Shown here one piece after another: positions 47,069 to 63,253 of a stretch of 64,000 bases of DNA. The DNA lies in assembly GCA_043806635.1 (NCBI GenBank), contig JAZDGT010000002.1, positions 41,974 to 105,973 of the forward strand. Reading direction: 5' to 3'. Source of the DNA: Methanobacteriota archaeon (GTDB taxonomy: Archaea > Thermoplasmatota > E2 > DHVEG-1). Each line of letters opens with the position of its first letter. Positions within the stretch are counted from its first letter, which is position 1. A model generated the notes under the pieces. It had not been told where the DNA came from. It saw nothing but the letters and a program-made list of their open reading frames with translations, and did no database searches. Both the position numbers and the translations under genes were made by a program.

Positions 47069-47074
47069 TGGTTA

Positions 47075-47145
47075 TTGTGAGCGAGTCGTAAGCCTCTTTG
47101 CAACAGGAGAAAAAGACAAATTTTTATGAAAATTGAGGACAGAAG
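47075..47145 (+). repeat. Cassette-boundary repeat, copy A (degenerate core plus conserved extension of about 46 bp).
   Basis: TTGTGAGCGAGTCGTAAGCCTCTTT + GCAACAGGAGAAAAAGACAAATTTTTATGAAAATTGAGGACAGAAG. Begins 7 nt after the trxB stop. Confidence 0.8.
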
Positions 47146-47168
47146 AAACTTGTATATCGAAAGTTATA

Positions 47169-47203
47169 TATACCATGGTATACATAGGTATACTTAGGTG
47201 TAC
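47169..47203. promoter_or_regulatory. Candidate operator of the toxin-antitoxin pair: a 14-bp palindrome plus three GGT(A/G)TAC repeats at 10-bp spacing.
   Basis: TATACCATGGTATA at 47169..47182. GGTATAC at 47177 and 47187, and GGTGTAC at 47197, ending 1 nt before the ATG at 47205. Confidence 0.5.
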
Positions 47204-47204
47204 T

Positions 47205-47444
47205 ATGAGTACGACAACCATTAAAATCCAAAATGATACGACATCACAAATCGATCAATTTCGCGAATATAAAAACGAGAGCTATGACGAGGTTATCAAA
47301 AAGCTTATCTATATTGTAAAAAACTTAAAAAAAGAACCAGAAGTCAGTAAAGAAACCATCAAAGCTATTGAAGCAGCAAGAGAGCGCATTAAAAAAGGAC
47401 ATTTCGTCAGCGAAGAAGTGGCAAAACAACGTCTGGGGCTTTAA
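47205..47444 (+). CDS. Type II antitoxin (small DNA-binding protein, RHH/CopG-like by size and position).
   Basis: MSTTTIKIQNDTTSQIDQFREYKNESYDEVIKKLIYIV... lies 3 nt upstream of a RelE-like gene. The ORF track starts at 47133. Confidence 0.6.
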   Translation: MSTTTIKIQNDTTSQIDQFREYKNESYDEVIKKLIYIVKNLKKEPEVSKETIKAIEAARERIKKGHFVSEEVAKQRLGL

Positions 47445-47447
47445 TGA

Positions 47448-47702
47448 ATGTATACCGTTGAATACGATGAAGAAGCTTTACTAAACCTAGAAAAATTAGA
47501 GAAGAAAATTAGGAAAAGAATTTTTGAAAAAATTAGTTCAACAAAAGAAAATCCATTTCATTATTTTGAGCGATTAACAGCAAGAGAAGAGTATAAACTT
47601 AGAGTTGGAGATTATCGAGTTATTGCTGATATCGATGAAAAGACAAAAAAGATATCTATTCTTTTCATAGGTCATAGAAAAAATATTTACGAAAAAAATT
47701 AA
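47448..47702 (+). CDS. relE: RelE/ParE-family type II toxin.
   Basis: YTVEYDEEALLNLEKL...KKIRKRIFEKI...YKLRVGDYRVIADIDEKTKKISILFIGHRKNIY. Confidence 0.8.
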   Translation: MYTVEYDEEALLNLEKLEKKIRKRIFEKISSTKENPFHYFERLTAREEYKLRVGDYRVIADIDEKTKKISILFIGHRKNIYEKN

Positions 47703-47710
47703 TTTTTTAG

Positions 47711-47778
47711 GTGCTGGGTATAGGCCGTAAGCCTCTTTATAATTCCTGTAAAATAAGAAATTTTGAGATTTTAGAAGA
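47711..47778 (+). repeat. Cassette-boundary repeat, copy B.
   Basis: GTGCTGGGTATAGGCCGTAAGCCTCTTT, with one mismatch to copies C and D, followed by a diverged AT-rich extension ending TTTTAGAAGACG. Begins 8 nt after the relE stop. Confidence 0.8.
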
Positions 47779-47863
47779 CGTAATTTTCACGAAATAAATT
47801 ACTATTTTTTCAATAGGTTTTATAAATCATTACCTGATAACAACACAGATTGAGGAGAACAGG

Positions 47864-48385
47864 ATGACTGATATAATTCTTAAATTCAAATATACAGAAG
47901 ATGAATTTGTTAAAACAATGAAAAAATTAAATTATAAATTTTATAAATGGCAAATATTTTATTACATTTGCTTTATTATCATGGGATTAATAAATTGGCT
48001 TTTCTGGAACGAGACAACTTTGATTGTTATATGGATTAGTTTGGGTATTTTTGGATTATTCATATTTTCTTATGATTTTTATATACAACCTCGTAGATTC
48101 TTCCGAAAACATCCAAAATTACACGATGATTTTAATATCACTTTTACTGATGAAGGAATTGAAATAAAAACAAAACAGATTAATTTGATATTGGGATGGA
48201 ATAATTATAAAAAAGTTTTAGAAGATAAAAGTACATATATTCTTGTAAGGAGTTTACGTTCTAAAATAATCACTGAATTATTTCGCACTTTTATTCCTAA
48301 ACGCGTATTTGAAAATAGCCAACAAGAAGAAGATTTTAGAAAATTATTATCTGAAAAGGTTTCCAAGGATTTTAATAAAATTTAA
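47864..48385 (+). CDS. YcxB-like membrane protein (two TM helices plus a small beta domain).
   Basis: SD GAGGAG. WQIFYYICFIIMGLINWLFW and LIVIWISLGIFGLFIF. Very AT-rich. Confidence 0.5.
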   Translation: MTDIILKFKYTEDEFVKTMKKLNYKFYKWQIFYYICFIIMGLINWLFWNETTLIVIWISLGIFGLFIFSYDFYIQPRRFFRKHPKLHDDFNITFTDEGIEIKTKQINLILGWNNYKKVLEDKSTYILVRSLRSKIITELFRTFIPKRVFENSQQEEDFRKLLSEKVSKDFNKI

Positions 48386-48499
48386 ATTCATTGTCAACGT
48401 TGAGCATAAAACAAGATGTTCTAAGGGAATGTTGTAAAGTTAGGTGTTTCTGATTTAAAGATTATTCTTTGATATATAAAAGGTTGAAAGAAATAATTA

Positions 48500-48596
48500 T
48501 TACTTTTTTGCGGCTTTAAAATAATCTATAAGTCTTTGTATCACTTCTGAGTAAGTTTCTCCTTTTTCTGCTATCACAAAACTTCTACCTTTTAAT
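48500..48596 (-). pseudogene. 3' remnant of an antitoxin-like gene, truncated at repeat copy C.
   Basis: The reverse-strand reading ...LKGRSFVIAEKGETYSEVIQRLIDYFKAAKK* matches ...NESYDEVIKKLIYIVKNLKK of the 47205 antitoxin. No start codon occurs before the reading frame enters the repeat. Confidence 0.45.
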
Positions 48597-48671
48597 TGTG
48601 CTGGGTGTAGGCCGTAAGCCTCTTTGCAACAGGAGAAAAACACAATTTTTATAAAAATTGGAAGACAGAAG
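48596..48671 (+). repeat. Cassette-boundary repeat, copy C (full core plus extension).
   Basis: TTGTGCTGGGTGTAGGCCGTAAGCCTCTTT + GCAACAGGAGAAAAACACAATTTTTATAAAAATTGGAAGACAGAAG. The extension is about 90% identical to copy A. Confidence 0.85.
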
Positions 48672-48861
48672 ATCATGAAAACATTATTTTGGAAAGTAAT
48701 CGGGGCGGCGGAGTAAGCTATCAACCTTTTTCTCAATCCTGTTGAATTTGAACTTTAAAGCTTTAGAATATGTATTTTTTTCGTGAAAAACGTCTAATAT
48801 AGATAAAGATTTTAATAATGGAAAAATGATATAACATTATTGTTTGGTGGAGGTTAAAGAA

Positions 48862-49176
48862 ATGAAAATCAAGAAGTATGTCTTTAATTTAAGTAATGTT
48901 ATAGAGGAATTGAACTTACTCAAGAGGCATATAATTATTCTTAAAACTCTGCGAAAGAATGAACCTCTCGGGATCGTGAAATTATCCAGATTAACAAAAT
49001 ATCCGGGACATTTAGTACGATATTCTTTGAGCGAACTAGAAAAAAGAGGAATGATAAAACCATCTAGCAAGGGAGCTCTCACAACAGATTCTGTAGATAA
49101 TAATCTTGTTTTATTAGAAAAACAATTGAAAGAAATAAAAAAAGAAATTAACAAAGTAATGATGATCCTTAGATAA
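48862..49176 (+). CDS. Winged-helix transcriptional regulator (104 aa).
   Basis: SD GGTGGAGGT. LKRHIIILKTLRKNEPLGIVKLSRLTKYPGHLVRYSLSELEKRGMI. The ORF track starts at a TTG at 48844. Confidence 0.55.
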   Translation: MKIKKYVFNLSNVIEELNLLKRHIIILKTLRKNEPLGIVKLSRLTKYPGHLVRYSLSELEKRGMIKPSSKGALTTDSVDNNLVLLEKQLKEIKKEINKVMMILR

Positions 49177-49225
49177 GTTGTTTCATATTGCAGATCAGAT
49201 AATTTCTAAATTCAAATTTAAATAG

Positions 49226-49255
49226 TTGTGCTGGGTGTAGGCCGTAAGCCTCTTT
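49226..49255 (+). repeat. Cassette-boundary repeat, copy D (core only).
   Basis: TTGTGCTGGGTGTAGGCCGTAAGCCTCTTT, 30/30 identical to copy C. Confidence 0.85.
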
Positions 49256-49267
49256 CTGTTTCTTATT

Positions 49268-49807: not shown

Positions 49808-50920
49808 ATGACGAAACGTGTCTACAATTTTTATGCAGGCCCAGCAACGTTACCGCTTACTGTTTTAAAAAAAGTTCAAGAAGAACTCCTTGATTTCCAT
49901 GGAACCGGGATGTCCATCCTTGAAATCTCCCATCGATCGAAAGAATATGATGAAGTCCATAAGAAAGCATCCGAGCTTCTGAGGGAGCTTATGGGTATCC
50001 CAAGCGATTATAAGGTTCTCTGGTTACAGGGTGGTGCCTCGTCGCAGTTCTTCATGGTGCCGTTAAATCTTCAGCAACCCGGGAAACCGATGGAATACGT
50101 CCTCACGGGTGCGTGGGCGAAGAAAGCCATTAAAGAAGCAAAGCTGTATGGTGAAGTAAAAATTGTTGCCTCCTCGGAGGATAAAAAATTTTCGTATATC
50201 CCTAAAAATGTGGTGTTTAATGAGAACGCCGCGTTTGCTCATATCACCGGGAATGAGACCATCGGAGGTGTTGAATGGTTCGAATGGCCGAAAGTCCCAA
50301 GCACTGTTCCTCTAGCATGTGATATGTCCTCGAATTTTATGGATAAGGTTATCGATGTGAAAAAATTTGGTGTTATTTACGCGGGTGCTCAGAAGAACCT
50401 CGGGCCAGCAGGAGTCACCGTTGTGATCGTCCGAGAGGATCTCCTCAACCGGGTTCCTGAGAATGCACCTACGATGCTGAAATGGAAGACCCATGTCGAA
50501 AAAGATTCTTTGTACAATACGAGCCCATGTTTCGCTATTTACATTTGTGAGCTCGTGCTGGAGTATCTGAAATCCCTTGGTGGAATCCCTGCCATGGAGA
50601 AACAGAACCGGAAGAAAGCAAAAATGGTGTATGACGTAATTGATAAATCAAATGGATTCTATCGTGGTGTTGCACAGCCTGATTCTCGATCATTGATGAA
50701 TATCACCTTTAATCTTGCAACCCCTGAGCTTGAAGCGAAATGTGTTGAAGAAGCAAAGAAACGAGGGCTCATTGGTTTGAAGGGTCATCGAGACGTTGGT
50801 GGTATGCGCGCATCGGTGTATAATGCGATGTCTCTTGAAGGTGTCGAAGTATTGTGTAAATTTTTAAAGGAATTCCACGAGCAAAACCAACAAGAATCAG
50901 TTGTGAAAGAATATCGATAA
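49808..50920 (+). CDS. serC: Phosphoserine aminotransferase.
   Basis: YNFYAGPATLP, GGASSQF, YAGAQKNLGPAGVT (PLP lysine). ATG at 49808 follows GAAGGAG; the ORF track starts at 49712. Confidence 0.9.
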   Translation: MTKRVYNFYAGPATLPLTVLKKVQEELLDFHGTGMSILEISHRSKEYDEVHKKASELLRELMGIPSDYKVLWLQGGASSQFFMVPLNLQQPGKPMEYVLTGAWAKKAIKEAKLYGEVKIVASSEDKKFSYIPKNVVFNENAAFAHITGNETIGGVEWFEWPKVPSTVPLACDMSSNFMDKVIDVKKFGVIYAGAQKNLGPAGVTVVIVREDLLNRVPENAPTMLKWKTHVEKDSLYNTSPCFAIYICELVLEYLKSLGGIPAMEKQNRKKAKMVYDVIDKSNGFYRGVAQPDSRSLMNITFNLATPELEAKCVEEAKKRGLIGLKGHRDVGGMRASVYNAMSLEGVEVLCKFLKEFHEQNQQESVVKEYR

Positions 50921-51188
50921 CATAACCCAATATCGGTACTCTTTTTTTCTTTTATTCAGAAGTAATACGGCATTGTCTTAAAAGTCAATATAGCTCTCTG
51001 GGGCAAGAATAGAACGAGTAAAGACTATCAGGAGGCAACCAATACTTTCGAGACAAAGCCAAGTAATACTTTCACTGACCCTATTTTGACGTATATAAAT
51101 AAAGACAGCGATGACGTACTAATTAGACGCGAGATACGGGGGATAATGCCAGCCCCAACAAACGCTGGCATTTCTGCCACATTTTCTT

Positions 51189-51845
51189 TTAGAACTCATC
51201 CAAAGTTTTCGTCTTATGATTCCTCATGAGTTGTTGAGCAGTTTCCCAGGATCGTCGAACATGAGGAGGAAGATCACCATACCGCTCAACCCACGTCATA
51301 AGAAATTTTTTTGTGATTGGGTCAGCCGGGTACCCACTCCCTAATGGGAGCCCAAGTGTTTTTTCTAATTCATACGCTATCTTTCGAACATGCTGATCAC
51401 GGGTTGTCTTCGCAATGATAGACGCGGCACCTACCACGGGGTAGATCTCATCTGCTTTATGTTCTGAAATAATCCTTGGTTTCCACGATAGTCTTGAAGC
51501 AATATTTTTACCGAAACGGACCTCATTCACATCAGCAGCATCCACATAACACACATCAGGTTTCAGTTTCTCGATAACCTTACTAAAAAGAGAGACTTCA
51601 AGCTCATTCAATGTCATTGTTTTCCGTAAATCATCAATATCAGTAGCAGAAACAACGATAACCTCAGAGTTCACAGCAAGGTGCTGTATCTCGGTGACTA
51701 ATTGTTCTCGTTTCGCAGGAGAGAGCTGTTTGGAATCACGAACCCCAATTTGCATCAGGGGAGCATCATCCTGGACAGTTACTCCAGCAACGACGAGCGG
51801 ACCGAACACGGGCCCACGCCCAGCTTCATCAATACCACAGATCAT
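51189..51845 (-). CDS. rnhB: Ribonuclease HII.
   Basis: MICGIDEAGRGPVFGPLVVAG, DSKQL, ASIIAK. Confidence 0.9.
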   Translation of the reverse strand: MICGIDEAGRGPVFGPLVVAGVTVQDDAPLMQIGVRDSKQLSPAKREQLVTEIQHLAVNSEVIVVSATDIDDLRKTMTLNELEVSLFSKVIEKLKPDVCYVDAADVNEVRFGKNIASRLSWKPRIISEHKADEIYPVVGAASIIAKTTRDQHVRKIAYELEKTLGLPLGSGYPADPITKKFLMTWVERYGDLPPHVRRSWETAQQLMRNHKTKTLDEF

Positions 51846-51937
51846 CAGTGTCGTGTATCAATTATCAGTAAAAAGAGGTTACGTATAAGAAAAGAGAGGC
51901 AATTCTTTTAATATGAGACTTTATTCCAGCTAAGAAC

Positions 51938-52011
51938 GCCGCCGTAGCTTAGCCCGGTAAAGCGGCTGATTCGTAATCAGCAGACCAGGGGTCCAAATCC
52001 CTTCGGCGGCT
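51938..52011 (+). tRNA. tRNA-Thr (anticodon CGU).
   Basis: Acceptor GCCGCCG/CGGCGGC. Anticodon stem GCTGA/TCAGC with loop TTCGTAA. T arm AGGGG-TCCAAAT-CCCTT. Discriminator T. Folded by eye. Confidence 0.85.
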
Positions 52012-52168
52012 CTGATAATAATTAGCACGGTTATTAAACAGAAAAAAACCAGAATAATTACAACGTCCATATGCTCAATCCTTCACCTTGATCAAAGCTA
52101 TGTATTATTGGGGACCTTATCATAAACATGTTATTAAAAATTGATTTTTACTTATAATCTTTCCTTCA

Positions 52169-54352
52169 CTAATTGTAGATGCCATTGTATGCATTTATAA
52201 TTTTATTTAAATCATATTTTTCAGGATCTAAACAATCATAACACCAAATAAAAAAACCATCTCCGTTTGATTCCATTGAACTTTTTATAGCATTCACAAT
52301 ATCATTATCTGTATTATTATATGGACCGTAGATTTTGATATTAGACACTATTTGACAGGATACTTTTTCCTTAGTTTTATTACAGATTCGCCCAGCAATA
52401 TTAAGATCACTAACATTATCTAATGCCACAAATGGAAAAATTGTATTCAAATTACTCTCTAATTTTGACATATCTTGAGCCATATTGTAAGCTCCATATT
52501 CTTCCGGAAGTAAAACTGAACCGATTTCCAAATTTGGATAAGACTGTTTAATATAATTTCTCCATTCTTTAATAAATTCTTCAATTTCATCGCTCCTCCA
52601 TTCCATCCACAAATCATATTTTTCCATTCCCTGTCTGAAAAATCTTGGAAATCCTAATGTTTTTGTTTCTAAAATGAATTTAAGGTTGCTTTGGAAACAA
52701 TAGCAGCAATCAGATAAAAAGCGTGGATCGTATAATATGATACCATTGACCATTGGATATTTTTCTAATAACTTATCAGACCAAGATATTGCCCAATCTC
52801 GACTTTTTTTGTTACTAAAACAAATTTCTCTTTCATCTATTTCCCCATTTCGATGGACCTGATGTGGTATATTATATCCATCTCCAGGCAGAGTTCTAGC
52901 TCTATACATTAACCATAGCGTTATGTTTCTTTGTTGTGTTTCATTTAGAAAATCAGCTACTTTTTCAAATTGAGTATTCTCCCATGACCAAGTAATCCAT
53001 CCAAAGTCAACGATCACATGATTTATGTTACATTCTTCAATAAATGTGAGTATTTCTGAAATCGATGATTCATCACCAATTATATCAGAACCTACAGCAA
53101 TACCACGGAATTTATCCTCAATCCTCTGATATTCACTAAGAGAATAGCTCATATTTTCAATATAACCTTCAAGATTTTTCACCTCAAAACAACCGATAGC
53201 AAGTTTCTGAGAATTTGTTGCATTTAGAAAATGATTTTTTTGTTTATCTGACATATTTCTATTAAGATAATCCTCATAGTAATCCCAAACTTTTTCTGTA
53301 ATGTTAAGTACCTTATCAATAGAAAATATATTTGAAGATAATTGAAATATTTCTTGTTCGCAAAATGACCAGTTAAAAGACCACGTTATATTAGCATTAG
53401 ATGTGCCCCAATAAGCAATCAAACCTCCTTCAGGATGATGCCCATTAATAATATTACTTGAAGTTTCATCACAAGGAAATGCAATAAATTGTATTGTATA
53501 GTTTTGATACCATTCTGGCATTCTTCCAATGTCTGATTCTAACCTAATCCAACCATATGGATGAGCATAATATTCGATAATATAATGAGTTGGATATACC
53601 ATCAGTACTCTTGCAGGTATACCATTAGCTCTTAGAAGAGCTGAAGCAAGATTTGCTGATCCCATACAATTACCGCCCTTAGTTCTAAGAGTTGTTAGCG
53701 CATCTTGATACCCTCCTCTGGATTCTAAAGGTCCTGTAAAATCAGCTACTTTTTCTGCGAGTTTTATAACATCGTTACTCATTCCTTTTAACATCTTAGC
53801 CCGTAGGTTAATTCTCCAATGATCAGATTGTATAAATTCAGAGGGCAACAACCATTTTTTAACATCGTTTGGTAAATCTTTTCTAGGTGTAACCCTAATG
53901 TTTTCAGGTAAATCGTCGAAGTTATTTTCTCTAACAACAACAGATATGGACCAAAAAAGCTTCAGAGTTTCTCCTTTAGTCATACCTAATAAATTAATCC
54001 TCAATAAAGAGTTTAAACTTGAATAATCATTAGCTATTCCAAATTCTGTTACTTTGTTGACAGGTTCAGTCCAAACATTATTTACGATTATAGGAGACTG
54101 ACTTTCACAGACTATTGGCATATGACAATATATTTGAAATGAGTCTACTGAATCAGAAGCAATTAAATCATAACATCCAGTAAGATTTTTTAAATAGATA
54201 TTTTTAATATCTAAAATATTGTTATAAATAGTGTTCATAATATTTGAAAAATTATCAGTTTTAATATTACTCGAAACTACGGGTAAAAGGAATGAAGTAA
54301 AGATCATGATGGTGATAATTGCTTTAGTATTCATTGCTAGATAATTAACCAT
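52169..54352 (-). CDS. Secreted or membrane-anchored transglutaminase-like cysteine protease-fold protein with a C-terminal TIM-barrel-like (glycosidase-like) region (727 aa).
   Basis: N-terminal helix AIITIMIFTSFLLPVVSS. Transglutaminase core GGNCMGSANLASALLRANGIPARV...AHPYGWIRLESD (Cys-His-Asp). The C-terminal half has alternating beta/alpha patterns. Very AT-rich. Confidence 0.6.
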   Translation of the reverse strand: MVNYLAMNTKAIITIMIFTSFLLPVVSSNIKTDNFSNIMNTIYNNILDIKNIYLKNLTGCYDLIASDSVDSFQIYCHMPIVCESQSPIIVNNVWTEPVNKVTEFGIANDYSSLNSLLRINLLGMTKGETLKLFWSISVVVRENNFDDLPENIRVTPRKDLPNDVKKWLLPSEFIQSDHWRINLRAKMLKGMSNDVIKLAEKVADFTGPLESRGGYQDALTTLRTKGGNCMGSANLASALLRANGIPARVLMVYPTHYIIEYYAHPYGWIRLESDIGRMPEWYQNYTIQFIAFPCDETSSNIINGHHPEGGLIAYWGTSNANITWSFNWSFCEQEIFQLSSNIFSIDKVLNITEKVWDYYEDYLNRNMSDKQKNHFLNATNSQKLAIGCFEVKNLEGYIENMSYSLSEYQRIEDKFRGIAVGSDIIGDESSISEILTFIEECNINHVIVDFGWITWSWENTQFEKVADFLNETQQRNITLWLMYRARTLPGDGYNIPHQVHRNGEIDEREICFSNKKSRDWAISWSDKLLEKYPMVNGIILYDPRFLSDCCYCFQSNLKFILETKTLGFPRFFRQGMEKYDLWMEWRSDEIEEFIKEWRNYIKQSYPNLEIGSVLLPEEYGAYNMAQDMSKLESNLNTIFPFVALDNVSDLNIAGRICNKTKEKVSCQIVSNIKIYGPYNNTDNDIVNAIKSSMESNGDGFFIWCYDCLDPEKYDLNKIINAYNGIYN

Positions 54353-54519
54353 CTTAATATAAATATTTTTCTTAAAAATAATAAAGAACTTTTTAATAAT
54401 TGAAATAAACGTCTGTTCGGAATTTTTTCAAAGATAAAGTGATTTGAATTTGATATATAAACATCTTCTTACTGGAGTAAATTATTAGAACAATTGCTGG
54501 GGCTTTGAACCTTTTGTTA

Positions 54520-54536
54520 AAATCCCTTCGGCGGCT
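54520..54536 (+). repeat. 17-nt exact duplicate of the 3' end of tRNA-Thr (AAATCCCTTCGGCGGCT). Candidate att remnant.
   Basis: Identical to 51995..52011, in the same orientation. Confidence 0.8.
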
Positions 54537-54549
54537 TACAAGAAAAAAG

Positions 54550-54675
54550 ATTATATTTTTTCTGAAAAAAACGAGGCTTCTGTTTTCGCTTTCCACTCTG
54601 AATTCCCTTTGTTGATAAACCGCTCATAAAGGGCGTCTTCATTGAGTTGTTTTACGGCCTTGTTCACATCAATCA
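54550..54675 (-). CDS. Possible small ORF (41 aa), MIDVNKAVKQLNEDALYERFINKGNSEWKAKTEASFFSEKI.
   Basis: ATG preceded by GAGGAGTGATGTGAA. Below the ORF-track cutoff. No homology recognised. Confidence 0.3.
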
Positions 54676-54816
54676 TTTCACATCACTCCTCAATCCTTAT
54701 TCTGTAGGATTACCTTATAAAGTGTTGTTGTACACGTAGTACCCAGCTTCTGTACAGTTGTTACCGGAAATCGATTCTAATATATTTCACAGGTATCTTC
54801 ATTAAAAAAAATTCAT

Positions 54817-57800
54817 TTAACGTTCTTCATATGCATACGCGGTTTTAAACCACCAAACCGGACCATCACGATGATTACCGTGACCATCATAGACGACAAT
54901 CATCCAGAAATATTTCGTCATACCCTCCATATGTCCACCAGGGAAAAGCACCCCTGGCATGAACTCAGCGACGGAGAACCTCCTCTGTACTAATGGAGGA
55001 GGATTCGTTTTCCCAAAATACACATCATACATCACCGGGTCATCATCAGGATCTCCTCCAGTCCACTGCAACGAGGAATACACATTCACATAGCTTTGAC
55101 CCCGATATGGCACCGGATTATACGGTTCAAACGGAGGATAATTCAAATCCCAGCCGCTCCAAGACATAAACGGGTACTGATCCTGATTAGTTCCACCTGA
55201 AATATTCATGGGGGTATCCCCGATACCATCATATCCTGACCAGTTCTGTCCCGGCCCTGAAAAACGATCACAACCCGGATATGTATTCCAATAATTCCCA
55301 CCATCAGGATACTCGATGTTCCATTGGTTATTCCCCAAATCATACGCGTTTTCAGGGTTATCAAAAGTATTATGATAGAAGAGGTTGAATGCTGTACTGT
55401 CTTCTAACCTAACACCCTGATTATTATCAAGAAAAATGTTCTCAACAAAAACATTGTATCGTGATGCAGAAAGATACCCACCCATGATGTTGTCTGTGAT
55501 ACGGTTTCCCGTGATACTATTATTCTGCGACCAATAGGCAAGCTCGATTGCTTTCGTATTATTTATAAAAGTGTTTTCCATCAGCGTGTTATTCGAAGAC
55601 CCCACAAACATAACCCCGGTTGAATACCCTGCGATGGTTCCAAGAAACGTATTTCCGATGATCGTATTGTAGGAGTTCTGAAAAAAGGGACTATACAAGA
55701 TCAGACCAAGGCGATTATGAGTAAAGAGATTCCCAGAAATAACACAATTCTGTATATCATGCAGACAGAGACCATAATTTGCATCAGTAATACTGGTTTC
55801 CAACACCGTGACGTTGTTTGCATAAATGTTGATCCCAGCGAAGATATCAAATAACATGAACCCGGGATTACGAATGGTGAGTCGCCTCAGAATAACGTCC
55901 TCAGCATCCACACAGATACCATCGCGTATATGACACGAGTCAATAACAGGGTGATATGCAGCATTTCCAATAAGGGTAAGTGGTTTATCAATGTACACGC
56001 TTTCATAATACTCTCGACCATCAATGGAGAGGAGATCACCAGTATCCGCTTCATCGACAGCATCCTGAATCGTCCAATAATACGTTTTTTTGAGAATATT
56101 GTACACCGTTGATTGATTTGCTATCATGACAACAAGGTGATCCTGGCTCACTTGTTTTTCTTGACTCATAACGGTTAACCGCAGGGTGTAGGGGCCATTA
56201 CTCAGATTTCTGGTATCCCAGTATGCGACAACATCGTCAATGATTTCTTCAGTACCATTCGCAGGTAACACTATTCCGTTATTCATCCAGAGTGTTGGCT
56301 GAAAACCAGATCCATATTCAACGATATAATGATGAAAAGTGGATTCTGGGGTATTCCCGCGACAGGCACGTCCCCTCAGTGAGACCTGTTGATGATATGA
56401 GGGGGGAAACACAAGGTATTTTCCCTGCTCAATCACGGTCATAAAATGAGCAGTAGGGCGGGTAAGATTCATCTGAATCTGGGTTTCAGGATCCCCTAGT
56501 AAGTTTAAGGTGTATTGAGTCCATCGATCATAGCAATCCTGAACACCCTCGGATTCCTTTGATTGTTGCAGAGCCACCCCTAGGTTTGTTGGTTGATGAT
56601 GCGCGGAAAACTCCATTAACGTCCGAAAAAACGATCGCTCAAATCGATCGTTCTTCCCTTCAATAGTTCCCGGTTCGTACCACCCATACCGGGAGTTACC
56701 AATATATGCAAATGCTCCACCTGATGCAACCACGAATTCTTCACCAAGAGCATCCGTTGTGTATTCACCATAGAAATCACGGTTATCAAAAGCAGCGGAA
56801 TAACACCCACCGCTATAAAACAGACAATAGCGGGTATTCGTGAGCTGATGAGCCGTCTGGACAGTAACACCTTCGCATCCATGATTATTCGCATGCCCAC
56901 TGTAGCTTACAATATGTGTTCCTTGATTTAATTCGGTAAATATTCTCGTTTGATTAAAGGTATGATCACGAGTATACACACGAGTAACGGTATAGTGAGG
57001 GATGATGCCGAGGACCGCGTCTTTTGAGGTCCCTCTTTCTGTTCTGCTATCTGAGCGAGGACCGATCATAAGCGCTTTCTGCACATAGGAATCATCATGT
57101 GTTACAGTATATTCATAGGCGATTGTTTTATTCACAAAATGATTTGCTTCAGCGACTGAATCAACGGGTGCTCTCCCGATACTTATCTCCGCATAAAAAT
57201 CAGCTTCTTCACCGTTATCACCTGATTCAAAATCCTCTGGTGGATCACCAGGATACGGCCAGGGTGTTTCACCAAAAATACCATCCTCGTCAGCATCCCA
57301 GCTTCCATCAAGACACGCGTAATACATATCGCAGGGGATATCATAGTCAGAATAGAAGCTCTGATTCATCGTATACACGTACATCCCTCGATGAGGAATC
57401 ACGGGTTCTTCTGCATCACCGCCTAACAATACATAGGTCGTACTCCAGTTCCGATATGCCATTTTTATGAAATTCCGTATCTGACAAGACGTATCATTAA
57501 AGTGGTTTTCGTCTCCACCATCACCCCAAAATCCATTGACCCAGAAAGTAGTATTCCTCACGATATCCTCAACAGAGACTAGCTTGCAGCTGAGATTACG
57601 ATAGGGTGTGTATAAACCACGAGTTGACTTCCATTCAAGAAGGCGTTCAAAAACATCCTGATACGCAGAGGAGGTGATGATCACATACTCATAACGCGTA
57701 TCATTTACCTGGGTACGCATCGGATAGGTATCAAGAATTTCGGGGTTATCAACAAGACCACTAACGTATTCTTTATCCAGGGTGCACCCTCGATACCAAT

Positions 57801-58431
57801 CAGACGAAGAAGGACTCTCAATAGTATAAACCGTAACCGTGATTTCATTATAATAGTGTAATTCCCGTAATCCTGGTAGATACTGAAGAGGGTAGAGATC
57901 AACAGATACCAGCGTATATCCCCTACAGTGTTGGAGACGTATATTCCCGGATAACTGTGAAGGGTAGGGATCCTCTGAGGAATAGACGGTTTTATCAGGT
58001 TCAACACACTGAGTATGGTTCCCCTGTATCCACCCCGTATCTGGGGTGGGGAGTTGCCCTGACTCAATAAAAAGAGTATCATATTGCTTAATGAATTGTT
58101 GGGGATACGCGATTTCAAGGTGAGTCATTTGTTTTTCGAAAGGAAGTACGAGTACAACGTGTTTCACGGGTAATACTGGTTTTCCTAAATCACCGTGGTT
58201 TGGTAAACCAGGTATGGTTACTTGGTTATACCGCTGATCTTGTGTTTTCTTGGTGAGATTAGGTGTTTGAAATGAGAATGTTAAAGTAAAACTCTCTCCC
58301 CAGTCATTTCGTGTATTGATTCGAGTTATATCCGTATTTACTCCGTTAATATTTGAAAGCGGAGCAACCGCAACAACTAAAAAGAAAAAACAGCAACAGA
58401 GTACCTTCTTAAAACGTAATAATCTCTCCAT
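54817..58431 (-). CDS. Giant secreted protein (1204 aa). Order: signal peptide, propeptide-like region, C25 (gingipain-like) cysteine peptidase, Ig-like domain, right-handed beta-helix (NosD/PbH1-like), then a C-terminal FN3 domain. It lacks the shared C-terminal module.
   Basis: VSYSGHANNHG (His) and CLFYSGGCYSAAFD (Cys). Beta-helix repeats (NVTVLETSITDANYGLCL, NCVISGNLFTHNRLGLIL...). LQWTGGDPDDDPVMYDVYFG...KYFWMIVVYD is the same FN3 type as in 13862..21373. Confidence 0.85.
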   Translation of the reverse strand: MERLLRFKKVLCCCFFFLVVAVAPLSNINGVNTDITRINTRNDWGESFTLTFSFQTPNLTKKTQDQRYNQVTIPGLPNHGDLGKPVLPVKHVVLVLPFEKQMTHLEIAYPQQFIKQYDTLFIESGQLPTPDTGWIQGNHTQCVEPDKTVYSSEDPYPSQLSGNIRLQHCRGYTLVSVDLYPLQYLPGLRELHYYNEITVTVYTIESPSSSDWYRGCTLDKEYVSGLVDNPEILDTYPMRTQVNDTRYEYVIITSSAYQDVFERLLEWKSTRGLYTPYRNLSCKLVSVEDIVRNTTFWVNGFWGDGGDENHFNDTSCQIRNFIKMAYRNWSTTYVLLGGDAEEPVIPHRGMYVYTMNQSFYSDYDIPCDMYYACLDGSWDADEDGIFGETPWPYPGDPPEDFESGDNGEEADFYAEISIGRAPVDSVAEANHFVNKTIAYEYTVTHDDSYVQKALMIGPRSDSRTERGTSKDAVLGIIPHYTVTRVYTRDHTFNQTRIFTELNQGTHIVSYSGHANNHGCEGVTVQTAHQLTNTRYCLFYSGGCYSAAFDNRDFYGEYTTDALGEEFVVASGGAFAYIGNSRYGWYEPGTIEGKNDRFERSFFRTLMEFSAHHQPTNLGVALQQSKESEGVQDCYDRWTQYTLNLLGDPETQIQMNLTRPTAHFMTVIEQGKYLVFPPSYHQQVSLRGRACRGNTPESTFHHYIVEYGSGFQPTLWMNNGIVLPANGTEEIIDDVVAYWDTRNLSNGPYTLRLTVMSQEKQVSQDHLVVMIANQSTVYNILKKTYYWTIQDAVDEADTGDLLSIDGREYYESVYIDKPLTLIGNAAYHPVIDSCHIRDGICVDAEDVILRRLTIRNPGFMLFDIFAGINIYANNVTVLETSITDANYGLCLHDIQNCVISGNLFTHNRLGLILYSPFFQNSYNTIIGNTFLGTIAGYSTGVMFVGSSNNTLMENTFINNTKAIELAYWSQNNSITGNRITDNIMGGYLSASRYNVFVENIFLDNNQGVRLEDSTAFNLFYHNTFDNPENAYDLGNNQWNIEYPDGGNYWNTYPGCDRFSGPGQNWSGYDGIGDTPMNISGGTNQDQYPFMSWSGWDLNYPPFEPYNPVPYRGQSYVNVYSSLQWTGGDPDDDPVMYDVYFGKTNPPPLVQRRFSVAEFMPGVLFPGGHMEGMTKYFWMIVVYDGHGNHRDGPVWWFKTAYAYEER

Positions 58432-58592
58432 TTATCCCCACATTACTATAATATCTTAGTGGTTTATGAGGTTGTCTAATTTTCTAAAAAAACCCTTTGT
58501 TTTTGAATCAATAAAATATGGGGAATAGTTCCTTTTCATTTACGATATGATATGATGACAATCTTCACATTTTTATAGTAATAGTTTGAAAA

Positions 58593-58763
58593 TTATTTTC
58601 GAAGGACGGTGTATGAGACTAAAAAATCTCCGTCGCATGTTGTGCATTTACATTCTTGGAAGCTATCTTGCTTTCGTATCTCCCCTCGTATTGTAAGGAT
58701 TTTTTCACTTCCACATAAAGGACATACAAGGTCGTCTACTCGGGTGAATGTCTCCTTTTTCAT
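58593..58763 (-). CDS. Small zinc-ribbon protein (56 aa), missed by the ORF-track length cutoff.
   Basis: ATG at 58763 preceded by CAGGGGAGAC. MKKETFTRVDDLVCPLCGSEKILTIRGEIRKQDSFQECKCTTCDGDFLVSYTVLRK has CxxC...CxxC. Confidence 0.5.
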   Translation of the reverse strand: MKKETFTRVDDLVCPLCGSEKILTIRGEIRKQDSFQECKCTTCDGDFLVSYTVLRK

Positions 58764-58944
58764 GTCTCCCCTGATTTTTAGAATGGATATCTGTCTTTGT
58801 TATAATAATATACTCATATACTGAAATAGAGAAAAAAGGCGTATTTATGAAAACTTTATAAAATGAGGAGCATCGATAAACCTATAATATTTCTCTAAAA
58901 ATAAGGATAAAAACAGAGGCTGTTACTCAGGGAAAATTGGGCTC

Positions 58945-58966
58945 CGATGGTCCCTGAACCATCGGA
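58945..58966. terminator. 8-bp stem hairpin (CCGATGGT-ccctga-ACCATCGG) just downstream of tbp.
   Basis: Inverted repeat read directly. Its function as a terminator is a guess. Confidence 0.25.
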
Positions 58967-58991
58967 ACATTCAGTGAATTCGTCTAAAAAT

Positions 58992-59561
58992 CTATTTTTT
59001 CAAATTTTTCTTCTTATGAATAAGCCCCAGCGAGATAAGCTCTTCTGATAACTTATCAACAGCCAAGGAGACATCAGTGATTTTTCGAGCACCCGTGCAC
59101 ACGATTTTTCCTGAGCCGAACAGTAACATAGCTACCTTCGGTTCTTTTATTCTATAGACCAGTCCTGGGAACTGCTCCGGTTCGTATTCAACGTTTTCTA
59201 AGCCTAGTGCCATCGCAACCTCATTAAGGTTTAGTTCACCACCAAGATCAGAGATGGCAACAATGTTTTGAATAACAATACTGGGGTCTTTGTATACGTC
59301 GACACCAAGTTTTTTGAGTTTATCAGCGATAATTCGGATCGTTGTCCTCACGTCTTCAATATTTTTTGCACCAGTACAGTTCGCTTTCCCACTGCGGAAC
59401 AATAATGTGGCAGTTTTTGGGCTAGCAAGACGATAGACCAAACCAGGGAACTGCTCCGGCTCATATTCTGCTTCTTCTAATGATTGCGCTATTACGTCTA
59501 AATCCAACTTGTCGGAGAAGGATGTGGACGCAACAATATTTTCTACGATTACTTCCGGCAT
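58992..59561 (-). CDS. tbp: TATA-box-binding protein.
   Basis: Two TBP repeats: VENIVASTSF...LDLD...EYEPEQFPGLVYRL...LLFRSGKANCTGAK and IQNIVAISDL...EYEPEQFPGLVYRI...LLFGSGKIVCTGAR. Confidence 0.92.
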   Translation of the reverse strand: MPEVIVENIVASTSFSDKLDLDVIAQSLEEAEYEPEQFPGLVYRLASPKTATLLFRSGKANCTGAKNIEDVRTTIRIIADKLKKLGVDVYKDPSIVIQNIVAISDLGGELNLNEVAMALGLENVEYEPEQFPGLVYRIKEPKVAMLLFGSGKIVCTGARKITDVSLAVDKLSEELISLGLIHKKKNLKK

Positions 59562-59579
59562 ATTTTTTCCTCCATCTTC

Positions 59580-60011
59580 TTATTTTATTCCATATGATAA
59601 TAGGTCATTCGTTATGTGTTCAAACGCACGAGTAACGTCATCAACGTTTGTTCCGGTGCAGACGATTTTTCCAGTATCAAAAAGGAGTACACTGATGTTG
59701 TGGTTATCATTTTTTTTGTAGATTAATCCGGGGAATTCAGAAGGATTATACGATGCTTTCATAACTCCAAGTGATTTCGCGAGTGCAGATAAATCAATTT
59801 TTTTCTGGAGTTCTTGTGATGCAACGATACTCTGTACGAGGATCTCTGGGTTTTCTTTCACAGGAAAACCAGCGGCGTGTAAGAGTTTTATGGTGGTATG
59901 AATGATGGTCTCAGTATCGTGTATGGTTTTTGTTCCCGTGCACATAAGAGTACCGTTTGGGAAAATCATAACTGCAGCCTGGACTGGCGTAGTTTTATGG
60001 ATGACAACCAA
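59580..60011 (-). CDS. Divergent TBP paralog. The ORF-track model starts at a TTG at 60011, but TBP homology continues in frame upstream to about 60134 with no canonical start, so this may be a pseudogene or a mis-assembled 5' end.
   Basis: MIFPNGTLMCTGTK and LLFDTGKIVCTGTN repeat cores. The upstream in-frame sequence reads VDTTRFTIENIVVTTKIADAFDLDHVSRTF (TBP N-terminus). SD GGGAGGGAGG and two TTTATATA boxes lie at 60137..60172. Confidence 0.6.
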   Translation of the reverse strand: MVVIHKTTPVQAAVMIFPNGTLMCTGTKTIHDTETIIHTTIKLLHAAGFPVKENPEILVQSIVASQELQKKIDLSALAKSLGVMKASYNPSEFPGLIYKKNDNHNISVLLFDTGKIVCTGTNVDDVTRAFEHITNDLLSYGIK

Positions 60012-60229
60012 TGAGGTCTCAGCAGGATTACGGTGTGAATCAGGAAACGTCCTTGAAACATGATCAAGATCAAAAGCGTCTGCAATCTTTGTGGTAACAA
60101 CTATGTTTTCGATTGTGAATCTGGTCGTATCAACAGCCTCCCTCCCTATAGTATATAAAGCCAGTATATAAAGGTTTATTCGCGTGAAAAAGGGCGTTCT
60201 TCTTAGAAAAAAGCACGGTGTCGTGGTTA

Positions 60230-60967
60230 CTACCCGACTTTATCTAGATCAAGATCAATGTCGTCATCATCTTGTTGTTTCTTTATTTGTTTCGGTTTCC
60301 CATGGTTCATTTCATCGAGTAACCCGCGGAATTCATTGGTTTTATCACCGATTCGTTGTTCACAGCTTGCGACTACTAATTCTCCGCGTGTTTTTTCGAT
60401 GATGCCGCGGACCATATCCTGCTTCTTTTTTATGGGGACGAGTGCAGAGGGGTAACTAAAACTCATGACCGCATCATAGATCCGATCCATGTGTTGTAAG
60501 TACTCATTCGCTCGTGTGGTGTCTCCTTCGAGCATGAAATCGAGCGCGCCTCGGCGGAGTTCACCAACGACGTCGCATAATCCCATGAGGTAGGAACTGT
60601 ACGTAGTTTGAAGCGTGTCAGGATCGGGTAACTCTTTTCCTTGCATAATATTGTATAAGCATTGGACTTCGACGAACTCCTGCGCGGCGTTCTCGACAAA
60701 ACCCGCATGAACAATATCAGGATGATCCTTGGTGAGCTCATACAACTGTGCTATTTTCGTGGAGGCTTGCGTGATAAAGCTTTCTGCTTCAGTGAGGTGA
60801 TCTTGATGGAGATGCTGGATTGCTTTTCTGCATGCGATGATGACGTCTCGTGAATGCTTCAGTGCTTCATCTCGAGCCTTATCTTTTTCGTTGATGTGAT
60901 GATCGATTTTCTCGATGATATGATCAAGGTTCTTTAACGCGTCGTTCACGTTCTCTTTTTCGCTCAT
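60230..60967 (-). CDS. Translin-family protein.
   Basis: YSSYLMGLCDVVGELRR (translin-type GL.D..GEL.R) in an all-helical protein. ATG at 60967 overlaps the serA stop as ATGA. The ORF track starts at 61102. Confidence 0.65.
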   Translation of the reverse strand: MSEKENVNDALKNLDHIIEKIDHHINEKDKARDEALKHSRDVIIACRKAIQHLHQDHLTEAESFITQASTKIAQLYELTKDHPDIVHAGFVENAAQEFVEVQCLYNIMQGKELPDPDTLQTTYSSYLMGLCDVVGELRRGALDFMLEGDTTRANEYLQHMDRIYDAVMSFSYPSALVPIKKKQDMVRGIIEKTRGELVVASCEQRIGDKTNEFRGLLDEMNHGKPKQIKKQQDDDDIDLDLDKVG

Positions 60968-61917
60968 TTTCCTTCCATCATTTTTTTGTTTACCCAAAAC
61001 TCTGGTGTCTTCCCGGATAACGCAATCATCATTTGTTCTGCACAGATTTTTCCTGCCCGGAGCTGCCCTTCTTTCGTAGATGCACCAATGTGCGGGGTGC
61101 ATACGACTTTTGGATGATTCACAAGCTCTTTGAACACAGGTGGTTCAGTCTCGTAGACGTCAAGCCCAGCAGCAGAGACTTTTCCATTGTTCAAATACTT
61201 CACCAATGCTTTCTCATCAATGGTTCCGCCACGGGCACAGTTTATCAAGATGACACCGGTTTTCATGTGTTCAAATTCCGGTTCTTTAAGTGTTGCTCCT
61301 TCGGTTTTTATAAAGGGGATATGTAGCGAGATATAATCTGATTCTTTGAGGAGTTTTTCTAGGGGAACGATGGTGATCTTTGGTGCGGGTGACTTCTGGA
61401 TGTACTTGTCATAGGCGAGCACGTTCATGTTAAAGGCAAGTGCTCGTTTCCCAAGCTCGGTACCAATGCGCCCTATTCCAATAATACCCAGGGTTTTCTT
61501 GTTGAGTTCAACACCTTTAAATGTTTTCTTCTCCCACATTCCTTGTTTCATGGAATGATCCGCTTGCGGGATCGATCGCGATGCTGCAATCATTAGTCCG
61601 AACGCGAGCTCTGCGACGCTTTCAGTTGTTCCTGTTGGTGCGTTCACCACCTTAATGTTATGTTTCGATGCGGTGGGGAGGTCTATATTATCAACCCCAA
61701 TGCCTGCACGACCAATAACTTTGAGGTTTCCTTTCGCACCAGCCTCAACCACCTCAGCAGTTGCCTTCGTCCGACTGCGTACCATTAACCCATCATACTT
61801 TGAAATCTCATTTACAAGGGTTGCAGGATCCATCTCGTTAAAAGTGACGTCATGTCCTGCAGTTTTTATTTGTTGAATAACATCATTTTCAATCTTATCG
61901 GTAATCAATATTCTCAT
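60964..61917 (-). CDS. serA: D-3-phosphoglycerate dehydrogenase / D-2-hydroxyacid dehydrogenase (short form, no ACT domain).
   Basis: NAD motif GIIGIGRIGTELGKRA, NCARGGTID, TPHIGAST. Confidence 0.8.
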   Translation of the reverse strand: MRILITDKIENDVIQQIKTAGHDVTFNEMDPATLVNEISKYDGLMVRSRTKATAEVVEAGAKGNLKVIGRAGIGVDNIDLPTASKHNIKVVNAPTGTTESVAELAFGLMIAASRSIPQADHSMKQGMWEKKTFKGVELNKKTLGIIGIGRIGTELGKRALAFNMNVLAYDKYIQKSPAPKITIVPLEKLLKESDYISLHIPFIKTEGATLKEPEFEHMKTGVILINCARGGTIDEKALVKYLNNGKVSAAGLDVYETEPPVFKELVNHPKVVCTPHIGASTKEGQLRAGKICAEQMMIALSGKTPEFWVNKKMMEGK

Positions 61918-61960
61918 AACATTGCCTCCACGAGGTGTATCGTCTCACAGATAAATATGT

Positions 61961-63253
61961 TTACGCTCTAAACGCGAGTTCTCTGAAATCAACGCCAGGA
62001 TACTCTGCAGCATTCCCGAGTTGTTCCTCTATACGAATCAACTGATTATATTTCGCGTTTCGATCACTGCGTGCAGGTGCACCGGTTTTAATCTGTCCAG
62101 CACTGGTTCCAACAACGAGATCAGCGATAAAGCAATCCTCGGTTTCTCCGCTTCGATGACTCACCACCGCAGTCCATCCTTCATCCTGCGCCAACTTAAT
62201 CGCATCTAACGTCTCAGTAACACTCCCAATCTGATTGAGTTTAATAAGAACCGAGTTCGCCGCCTGCAACTCAATTCCTTTTTGAATCCGTTTCGTATTC
62301 GTCACGAATAAATCATCACCCACGATCTGGATCCTACCCCCAAGTTTCTTCGTCATCTCCACCCAAGAATCCCAGTCATCCTCCGCAAGACCATCCTCAA
62401 TACTCACAATCGGATATCGTTTACACAGATCAACATAAAAATCAACCATTTCCCCACCAGAAAACGACTTTGTACCAATTTTATAAACACCCTCATAGAA
62501 AAACTCACTCGACGCAGGATCTAACGCGATCTTCATCTTCCCCGCATACCCTGAATTCTCCACCGCCTGCAACATCAACTCCAATCGCTCATTCACATCA
62601 GTAACCTGAGTAGGAGCAAACCCGCCTTCATCCCCAATCAGAATACCACCAGCGCCAAACTCGCCTTTTAAGAGTTTCGCAAGATGATGATAACACTCGG
62701 AAATCATCCGAATACCTTCTGTAAATGTTTTCGCACCAGTCGGCATCAACATATGCTCCTGAATAGAATTCTCCTGCCCAGCATGTTTCCCCCCATTAAT
62801 CACGTTACACATGGGAACCGGTAACCGATACGGTTTCACTCCAAACAACCCACCAATATACTCATACAACGGGATCTGCTTCGCCGCAGCACCCGCTTTC
62901 GTCACCGCCATAGAAACAGGAAGAACCGCGTTCGCCCCAAGTTTCCCTTTATTCTCCGTCCCATCCAATTTCAACATAAGATTATCAATAGTTTCTTGCT
63001 GACAACAATTCAAACCAATAAGCTTCGGTGCGATCTTCTTATTCACATTATCAACCGCGTTCAACGTCCCTTTCCCGAGATATCGCGCAGCATCTTTATC
63101 ACGTAACTCCAACGCCTCATGCTGCCCCGCACTCGCACCACTTGGAGTCATCGCCCGAAAAACACCATGTTCAGTTACCACATCAACTTCCACTGTTGGA
63201 TTCCCACGGGAATCAAGGACTTCACGTGCTCTCACACCTTCAATCTCAGACAT
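61961..63253 (-). CDS. eno: Enolase.
   Basis: REVLDSRGNPTVEVDV, GDEGGFAP, IKLNQIGSVTET, SHRSGETED. Confidence 0.95.
   Translation of the reverse strand: MSEIEGVRAREVLDSRGNPTVEVDVVTEHGVFRAMTPSGASAGQHEALELRDKDAARYLGKGTLNAVDNVNKKIAPKLIGLNCCQQETIDNLMLKLDGTENKGKLGANAVLPVSMAVTKAGAAAKQIPLYEYIGGLFGVKPYRLPVPMCNVINGGKHAGQENSIQEHMLMPTGAKTFTEGIRMISECYHHLAKLLKGEFGAGGILIGDEGGFAPTQVTDVNERLELMLQAVENSGYAGKMKIALDPASSEFFYEGVYKIGTKSFSGGEMVDFYVDLCKRYPIVSIEDGLAEDDWDSWVEMTKKLGGRIQIVGDDLFVTNTKRIQKGIELQAANSVLIKLNQIGSVTETLDAIKLAQDEGWTAVVSHRSGETEDCFIADLVVGTSAGQIKTGAPARSDRNAKYNQLIRIEEQLGNAAEYPGVDFRELAFRA

Follow-up and report, generated by a model that had tools for sequence, protein, structure and literature searches.

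The subject of this analysis is a 2.5-kb AT-rich islet, here designated unit 1, which adjoins a tRNA-Thr(CGU) gene in a 64,000-nt stretch of archaeal DNA (contig JAZDGT010000002.1, positions 41,974 to 105,973, of assembly GCA_043806635.1; Thermoplasmatota, DHVEG-1), hereafter referred to as the window. The islet is likely to represent a cargo-only mobile DNA unit that was placed at the 3' end of this tRNA gene through site-specific recombination by a tyrosine recombinase. This reading is carried by a direct repeat of the tRNA end at the two borders of the islet, its deviating composition, the absence of the surrounding block from an otherwise colinear relative, the presence of comparable units and of integrases at the same tRNA gene in related archaea, and the mobility of the family to which its single gene belongs.

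The tRNA-Thr gene and its direct repeat

A single tRNA gene is called in the whole window, i.e., an intact tRNA-Thr(CGU) on the + strand, which is placed at 51938-52012 by ARAGORN and at 51938-52011 by Rfam (65.8 bits), and which would constitute the integration target and the attachment (att) site on the left side, attL. Its 3' terminal 17 nt, AAATCCCTTCGGCGGCT, are found exactly twice in the window, at 51995-52011 and 54520-54536, both on the + strand. A search allowing up to two mismatches returned no additional match in the window and none in 100 shuffled sequences, which agrees with an earlier note on this DNA, in which the recurrence of the tRNA 3' end was reported and a chance match was considered very unlikely.

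The first copy of this putative att core covers the last three bases of the T-loop, the 3' strand of the T-stem, the 3' acceptor strand and the discriminator base, and the repeats of three related contigs (L103, L104 and L119; see below) exhibit a near-identical start in the T-loop. The second copy, which would represent attR of unit 1 as well as the junction to a second inserted unit (unit 2), has no tRNA-like context. The identity between the two copies is limited to the 17 nt, since the 57 nt upstream and the 60 nt downstream align no better than shuffled sequences, and neither ARAGORN nor Rfam indicates a tRNA at the second copy. A second tRNA gene or pseudogene at this position, which the earlier note had listed as a possible refutation, was rejected on these grounds. 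Folding of the region around the second copy (54470-54560) was also no better than that of shuffled sequences (z=+0.6).

The interval between the two copies has a GC content of 0.30 as compared to 0.43 for the block to its left (PSAT/RNase HII) and 0.44 for the block to its right (TBP-enolase), consistent with its previous description as AT-rich. Furthermore, its sole long open reading frame (ORF), located on the opposite strand at 52169-54352 as had been noted before, exhibits a GC content of 0.31 and a GC content at third codon positions (GC3) of 0.22, as opposed to GC3 values of 0.38-0.45 for the neighboring genes.

The empty site and the 7-kb island

The DNA to the left of the tRNA gene represents host backbone: the RNase HII gene (51189-51845, - strand; Pfam RNase_HII, E=1.4e-45) is the conserved left neighbor of the tRNA, and the order PSAT-RNase HII-tRNA-Thr(CGU) is kept in dozens of Thermoplasmatota contigs. 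Uncultured Thermoplasmatota represented by metagenome-assembled genomes (MAGs) stand closest to the window, with an RNase HII identity of at most 72-73%, and all contigs used for comparison, identified here by L numbers, are fragmentary MAG or metagenome contigs. For the window genes on the right side of the tRNA, no counterpart was detected within 10 kb of that gene in the relatives' loci from genome collections. Among the metagenome contigs, however, L113 (RNase HII 66% identical) has retained both flanks, with merely 30 nt between tRNA-Thr and the TBP gene. Window positions 50129-52011 are colinear with this contig up to the tRNA end, and positions 59017-63998 are colinear with it from 30 nt past the tRNA, the shared right flank encoding TBP (92% aa identity), a TBP-like protein, a translin-like protein, a 2-hydroxyacid dehydrogenase and enolase (83% aa identity).

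Since L113 possesses only 30 nt at the corresponding position, the DNA from 52012 to ~58985 (~7.0 kb) is an insertion at the tRNA 3' end. The islet is therefore also the edge of a larger inserted block, an alternative that the earlier note had raised. The arrangement in L113 is unlikely to have arisen by secondary deletion of an ancestral 7-kb block, as judged from the compared contigs, given that no relative shares any part of that block.

The 17-mer at 54520 divides the block into unit 1 (52012-54536; GC content 0.30) and unit 2 (54537-~58985; GC content 0.41, and GC3 0.40 as compared to 0.22 for unit 1). Unit 2, which is absent between tRNA and TBP in L113, spans 54537-58984 and comprises a gene for a C25 (gingipain-like) peptidase with a NosD/beta-helix region (54817-58431, - strand; Pfam Peptidase_C25, E=1.9e-61), which has a native-like GC content of 0.43, followed by an ORF for a 56-residue Cys-rich protein (58593-58763, - strand) and an AT-rich tail. 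Synteny with L113 places the resumption of the backbone at 58985-59561 (- strand), where a short native spacer (TAAAAATC...) is followed by the TBP gene (58992-59561). A perfect 9-bp hairpin, CTCCGATGGT...ACCATCGGA, at 58943-58966 (z=-2.05 versus shuffled sequences) lies ~20 nt before the homology to L113 resumes, and could function as a terminator or be what is left of a site at the right end of the island.

Unit 1 is the tRNA-proximal, and hence probably the youngest, part of a composite island of ~7 kb. Its younger age is suggested by its position next to the tRNA, its intact repeat and its un-ameliorated composition.

Trailers and candidate arm motifs

The sequence directly past the tRNA (52012-52065, + strand; CTGATAATAATTAGCACGG...), here termed the type I trailer, has homologues in related archaea: ~50 nt match the sequence following tRNA-Thr in L001-L005, L102, L103 and L106. 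A native trailer was considered in view of its match to nine relatives, and would contradict an insertion at the tRNA end. Such an origin was rejected, and the trailer was assigned to the inserted DNA as a presumed element-derived arm, because it is absent from L113, because it recurs past the distal repeat copy in L103, because in L104 it adjoins the tRNA and the next copy is followed by the 'type II' trailer, which is the more widespread of the two, and because trailer types I and II are interspersed in an RNase HII tree, even between near-identical genomes.

At the other end of unit 1, a candidate P-arm motif, GGGGCTTTGAACC (54492-54504, + strand), lies 15 nt upstream of the second copy. 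It is the best match in the window to a profile of the relatives' trailers (E=0.11; a P-arm profile gave E=3.3), and similar motifs precede the repeat copies in L107 and L119. The right flank of the second copy was also considered as a type II trailer of the relatives, but a profile search lent this no support (E=21).

tRNA-Thr as a recombination hot spot in related archaea

Comparison of related contigs identifies tRNA-Thr(CGU) as a recombination hot spot. For example, L001 and L100 are 99.7% identical over 1378 nt including the tRNA and diverge completely ~11 nt past its end, while L105, L106 and L007 are 88-91% identical until 1-2 nt past the tRNA and then continue into three unrelated sequences. 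Six contigs stop within 150 nt past tRNA-Thr, which fits strain heterogeneity or repeats at this position, and the assembly of these MAGs seems to break systematically at this locus.

Direct repeats of the tRNA end, with the T-loop as their left boundary as in the window, were found downstream of the tRNA gene in four of these contigs: L103 (19 nt, +4.0 kb), L104 (18 nt and 16 nt, +4.9 kb and +8.0 kb), L119 (16 nt and 11 nt, +1.8 kb and +4.3 kb, with an additional degenerate copy at +85 nt) and L107 (12 nt, +3.4 kb). The host-backbone gene at 60230-61102 of the window has a homologue (71% aa identity) in L107, ~0.3 kb beyond the distal copy of that contig. The repeat-bounded units measure 1.7-4.9 kb and encompass one to three genes each, with cargo that includes PKD and Big_1 secreted proteins, MatE and CorA transporters, a C25 peptidase and an 840-aa protein without a Pfam match. 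L119 carries such a C25 peptidase as well as an AbiE-like two-gene pair, which, like the FAD-binding, reductase-like proteins also present among the cargo, was named solely from reading the translations.

Integrase genes occur at the same tRNA in several relatives. L007 encodes a 407-aa tyrosine recombinase with a C-terminal zinc ribbon directly past the tRNA; a primase/helicase gene comes next, and the GC content is low over ~7.5 kb. L121 carries a related integrase gene directly past tRNA-Thr. In L074, a related integrase gene is located ~180 nt from a match to a tRNA-Thr-like 3' end, at which ARAGORN calls no tRNA, while L104 possesses a truncated integrase (271 aa, 83% identical to that of L007) past its most distal repeat. 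These four enzymes are Xer-like tyrosine recombinases whose scores lie far under the equivalog thresholds of XerA and IntI. An integrase matching the 17-mer, which the earlier note had proposed to look for in the assembly, was not found in the 64-kb window, and enzymes at the same tRNA were retrieved from L007 and L121. None of the six tRNA-Thr units for which both boundaries were recovered (that of the window, one in L103, two in L104 and two in L119) contains an integrase. For the L107 unit, a homology search identified no integrase, and neither of its two ORFs has a Pfam match.

The cargo gene and its family

The gene of unit 1 (52169-54352, - strand) encodes a protein of 727 residues, or 721 in the corresponding database entry, which starts at M7. 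A hydrophobic N-terminal helix, which would act as a signal or anchor, precedes a beta-sandwich, a transglutaminase-like cysteine protease core (Pfam Transglut_core, E=4.7e-12) with the triad Cys 229, His 264 and Asp 274 in place, and a C-terminal TIM barrel; Pfam searches returned a weak GHL10 signal for the C-terminal third. An AlphaFold (AF2) model based on 20 homologues (mean pLDDT 81.8) was compared to known structures using Foldseek. Its N-terminal half resembles the putative cysteine protease 3isr, to which a sequence match was also obtained, while its TIM barrel resembles the C-terminal domain of PgaB, Cwp19, and GH42 and GH35 galactosidases. The protein is therefore predicted, on the basis of these models, to be a secreted or anchored two-domain hydrolase that combines a transglutaminase-like cysteine protease with a glycoside hydrolase (GH)-like barrel. 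Its previous label of transglutaminase-like secreted protein is correct as far as it goes, and is incomplete in that it lacks the barrel as the second domain.

The ~310-aa barrel is also fused to clostripain-like C11 domains and other N-terminal modules (proteins P0012, P0018, P0020 and P0025), which, at the sequence level, indicates domain shuffling among the secreted hydrolases of these archaea.

The nearest homologue of the cargo gene (75% aa identity; 82% nt identity over the ORF) is located on L081, a contig of 3.7 kb (1-3742) with a 5'-truncated tRNA (Rfam, 37.6 bits; anticodon loop of Val-UAC), a gene for a 283-aa Xer-like integrase, a 59-aa ORF and the cargo homologue. These genes are flanked by an exact 21-nt direct repeat of the tRNA end with a spacing of 3653 nt. 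By its gene content and borders, L081 is a complete, minimal integrase-bearing integrative element of 3.65 kb at tRNA-Val. To our knowledge, it is among the smallest integrase-bearing archaeal elements.

Other family members occur in different surroundings. In L088, a homologue with 52% identity is the first gene of the first unit past an intact tRNA-Leu(CAG), in an array in which tRNA-Leu 3'-end fragments then separate a 71-aa ORF and an M14 peptidase gene; in L087, a tRNA-Leu-like fragment is located ~120 nt upstream of the cargo homologue; and in L082, the homologue (54% aa identity) is packed between housekeeping genes. The family is AT-rich throughout these contexts (GC content 0.30-0.35). 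The cargo gene is oriented against the tRNA in the window and in the same direction as the tRNA in L081, L087 and L088, while the associated att sites are those of tRNA-Thr, tRNA-Val and tRNA-Leu, respectively, for the window, L081 and the latter two contigs. Because both orientation and att site differ, the gene shifts between element backbones and does not belong to a fixed cassette of gene plus site. The contexts in L081 and L088 in particular show the cargo gene family to be mobile.

Proposed mechanism and the absence of an integrase

In the proposed mechanism, a tyrosine recombinase would join the segment of tRNA-Thr from the T-loop to the 3' end with an identical segment on a circular donor, with the crossover in the T-loop. 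At the left junction the tRNA would thereby be rebuilt, giving the first copy of the 17-mer, while at the right junction the second 17-nt copy would be left beside previously inserted DNA, i.e., unit 2. Remobilization of unit 1 would require that a recombinase resembling the 407-aa Xer-like enzyme (L007, L104, L121) act on it in trans. Archaeal elements that integrate in tandem at a single tRNA, and that lose their integrase, have been documented (PMC8371274, PMC6563490).

Several observations weigh against this interpretation. No integrase ORF or fragment was detected in the islet or in the 64-kb window, where tblastn searches with the L007, L104 and L081 integrases also returned no match, and a cognate integrase at the same att is seen in relatives only: in L007 and L121, in L074 at a tRNA-Thr-like 3' end, and in L104 in truncated form at a partial copy. 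The differences in cargo orientation and att site mentioned above imply that unit 1 is not simply an L081-type element minus its integrase. Furthermore, the right end of unit 2 carries no recognizable terminal copy of the tRNA end, local alignment being at chance level, and the P-arm motif shared with L107 and L119 does not reach significance with either profile. Finally, no relative with more than 73% RNase HII identity was found, hence no same-species empty site is available for the 2.5-kb unit alone, and an exact search of metagenome contigs for its predicted empty junction (the tRNA end joined to the flank starting at 54537) gave no match. The search for empty sites that had been proposed for this locus was therefore successful for the 7-kb island, through L113, and not for unit 1 by itself. 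Conversely, no relative was found that carries the same gene beside tRNA-Thr without a repeat and with native composition, an arrangement which the earlier note had named as evidence against integration.

The 17-mer has nine matches in IMG/VR, all of which are on high-GC contigs or lack any extension beyond the 17 nt, so that none qualifies as an attP candidate, and this number is close to the chance expectation obtained from a rough guess of the collection size. In addition, the L007 and L081 integrases have no relatives among viral contigs.

The earlier description of the islet as an integrated element with attL and attR that has lost its integrase is upheld insofar as the two copies behave as an att pair and the window lacks an integrase. 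As regards the latter, unit 1 may either have lost an integrase of its own, of the L081 type, or have been moved in trans. Two observations lean towards mobilization in trans: integrase-less units predominate at this site in the relatives, and no integrase remnant is present in the 325 nt of non-coding DNA of unit 1. The decay of an integrase that is directly visible in L104, however, argues in the opposite direction.

Alternative explanations

A possible, if distinctly less likely, explanation is that the unit never had an integrase, and that small cargo cassettes with a site resembling a tRNA 3' end and conserved arms are reshuffled at tRNA genes, in the manner of an integron, by recombinases encoded elsewhere. 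It would account for the lack of integrases in all six fully bounded tRNA-Thr units and of an integrase remnant in the non-coding DNA of unit 1, for the type I trailer that is common to units with different cargo, and for arrays (L004/L109 and L088) in which single secreted-protein genes are located between tRNA-Leu 3'-end fragments, with a flanking arm of 75-100 nt shared by some of them. It is, on the other hand, at odds with a cargo family that changes att site and orientation between contexts, so that gene and site do not form one fixed cassette, and with the lack of significance of the arm motifs in the window. An excised form was also not seen in the exact search for the empty junction in metagenome contigs, and integrase decay, as in L104, could yield the same picture.

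A broader and somewhat more tentative proposal is that tRNA genes (Thr-CGU, Leu-CAG and Val-UAC) of this group of uncultured Thermoplasmatota dock arrays of integrase-less cassettes, each with a tRNA-3'-end-like site and conserved arms, which a few Xer-like recombinases capture and reshuffle in trans. If true, this would represent a tRNA-based functional analogue of the integron that spreads secreted peptidases, hydrolases, transporters, and toxin-antitoxin or defense genes.

It is rather improbable that the entire 7 kb was acquired in one step as a single composite, for instance as a piece of the tRNA-Thr island of another genome, in which case the internal 17-mer would be a carried relic. 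The empty site does define the outer limits of the insertion only and not its internal junction, and arrays with internal copies, which could be transferred whole, exist in relatives. Yet the two halves differ in GC content (0.30 vs 0.41) and GC3 (0.22 vs 0.40) sharply, in a manner that fits different arrival times or donors, and the internal copy shows no mismatch, in contrast to an outer right end too decayed to be recognized, as would be expected of a younger, tRNA-proximal unit.

That the islet is not mobile DNA at all, but a native gene beside a 17-mer that arose by chance, by duplication of local sequence or from a former second tRNA gene, is scarcely credible despite the L082 homologue that sits tightly between housekeeping genes without space for att sites, given that no chance matches are expected, that the second copy displays no tRNA-like signal or extended similarity, that the block is absent from L113, that the GC3 of the gene is 0.22 and that the same repeat pattern occurs in four other contigs.

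Other arrays and genes of the window and related contigs

A second AT-rich islet (47070-49260; GC content 0.23-0.31), situated between a TrxR-like gene and a HycI protease gene, also constitutes a repeat-bounded array. The sequence GTGCTGGGTGTAGGCCGTAAGCCTCTTT occurs at 47711, 48598 and 49228, with a 13-nt partial copy at ~47087, and separates a DUF7557/ParE toxin-antitoxin pair, a YcxB-like gene, small ORFs and a wHTH gene. These repeats have no match in Rfam. GTGCTGGGTGTAGGCCGTAAGCCTCTTT is followed by CAACAGGAGAAAAA, the reverse complement of the TTTTTCTCCTGTTG motif in the type II trailers past the relatives' tRNA-Thr. The islet may have formed by tandem integration, or as an array of the integron-like kind, at a site other than a tRNA gene, and under the broader proposal above its arms might be related to those of the tRNA-based cassettes. 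A search for attC-like hairpins at the repeats of the tRNA-Thr and 47070-49260 arrays returned folds no better than those of shuffled sequences, save for the unrelated hairpin at 58943-58966.

In L004 (1340-6390), and also in L109, five direct copies of the tRNA-Leu(CAG) 3' end, GGGTTCAAATCCCTTCCCCTGCA, one of which is degenerate, separate single genes for secreted proteins, i.e., a NosD-like protein, a 154-aa protein, a 614-aa PKD protein and a 126-aa protein. Some of the copies share flanks of 75-100 nt. This array points towards tRNA-Thr, and the full tRNA-Leu is absent from the locus.

At its left end (500-21373), the window contains four very large ORFs of secreted type (1425, 1560, 1308 and 2503 aa), with domains that include a second C25 peptidase with CARDB, LamG/DUF2341, and FG-GAP/beta-propeller with NosD beta-helix. 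Archaeal host genes in the window encode TBP, PolX, NAD-ligase and the anaerobic ribonucleotide reductase NrdD (40301-43438), the latter with a weak intein-splicing signal suggesting, at the level of the sequence, that the gene carries an intein insertion.

Implications for secreted enzymes

Secreted C25, C11 and M14 peptidases are believed to enable archaea related to these MAGs to break down detrital protein in sediments (PMC6461988). A C25 peptidase, an M14 peptidase (L088) and the transglutaminase/glycosidase-like protein of unit 1 are all located on tRNA-anchored, repeat-bounded units of a kind that varies even among near-identical genomes, which suggests that part of the extracellular enzyme repertoire is carried on exchangeable units. 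If so, this repertoire would vary at the level of strains and be exchanged horizontally. As a consequence of the assembly breaks at tRNA-Thr, accessory hydrolases may be under-counted in MAGs. In addition, the short att core (~15-19 nt) together with the candidate integrases offers a possible site-specific integration system for archaea.

Comparison with known systems

The element is of a known type, encountered here in a little-studied lineage for which no such description was found in the literature searched. It is most readily compared to archaeal elements with Xer-like integrases of the non-suicidal, pNOB8 type (PMC6563490; PMC8371274), with which it shares the targeting of the 3' part of a tRNA gene, the regeneration of the tRNA, direct att repeats, tandem integration at one site, integrase loss after integration and a deviating composition. 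The complete form is represented in relatives by L007 and L121 at the same tRNA and by L081 at tRNA-Val. Unit 1 differs in that it possesses no integrase, replication or regulatory genes, and carries a single cargo gene in 2.5 kb. Cryptic integrated elements are, by definition, recognized by their integrase (PMC6563490). Of the features that characterize non-suicidal tRNA elements, unit 1 displays an intact tRNA at its border and a distal direct repeat, and lacks an integrase of its own; an empty site is available for the 7-kb island as a whole (L113) and not for the 2.5-kb unit alone.

The tycheposons of Prochlorococcus (bioRxiv 10.1101/2020.12.28.424599) similarly form flexible islands beside tRNA genes with full and partial tRNA copies. 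Their older units are displaced inward with each new integration, their degenerate remnants have no integrase, and their cargo is niche-adaptive. A tRNA-anchored island with partial copies that mark its units is likewise present in the window, L103, L104, L107 and L119, and the combination of integrase and primase/helicase in L007 resembles that of complete tycheposons. The systems differ in that the host is archaeal and the recombinases are Xer-like in the present case, and in that excision and circles have been shown for tycheposons only. Membership of the relatives' integrases in the tycheposon recombinase clade is unlikely, since the hosts are archaea, and the resemblance would appear to lie in how the system works.

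Integrons and clusters of attC sites lacking integron-integrases (CALINs), including those of archaea (PMC9668308), share with the present units the organization in arrays of short, mostly single-gene, integrase-less units between a repeated recombination site, and also toxin-antitoxin cargo, as exemplified by the AbiE-like pair of L119 and the ParE pair of the 47070-49260 array. In contrast to these systems, the repeat is a copy of a tRNA 3' end and not an attC hairpin with R''/L''-L'/R' boxes (a hairpin at the second copy was not significant), IntI and attI are absent, the window encodes no tyrosine recombinase, the relatives' enzymes fall far below the cut-offs for integron integrases, and gene orientation is not uniform.

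Elements with 'suicidal' integrases of the SSV type (PMC7253208) also target tRNA genes and generate short direct repeats. Their integration splits the integrase gene into flanking halves, whereas no such halves are located beside unit 1, the ORFs at its borders having no similarity to integrases, and the integrases of the relatives are intact in the integrated state.

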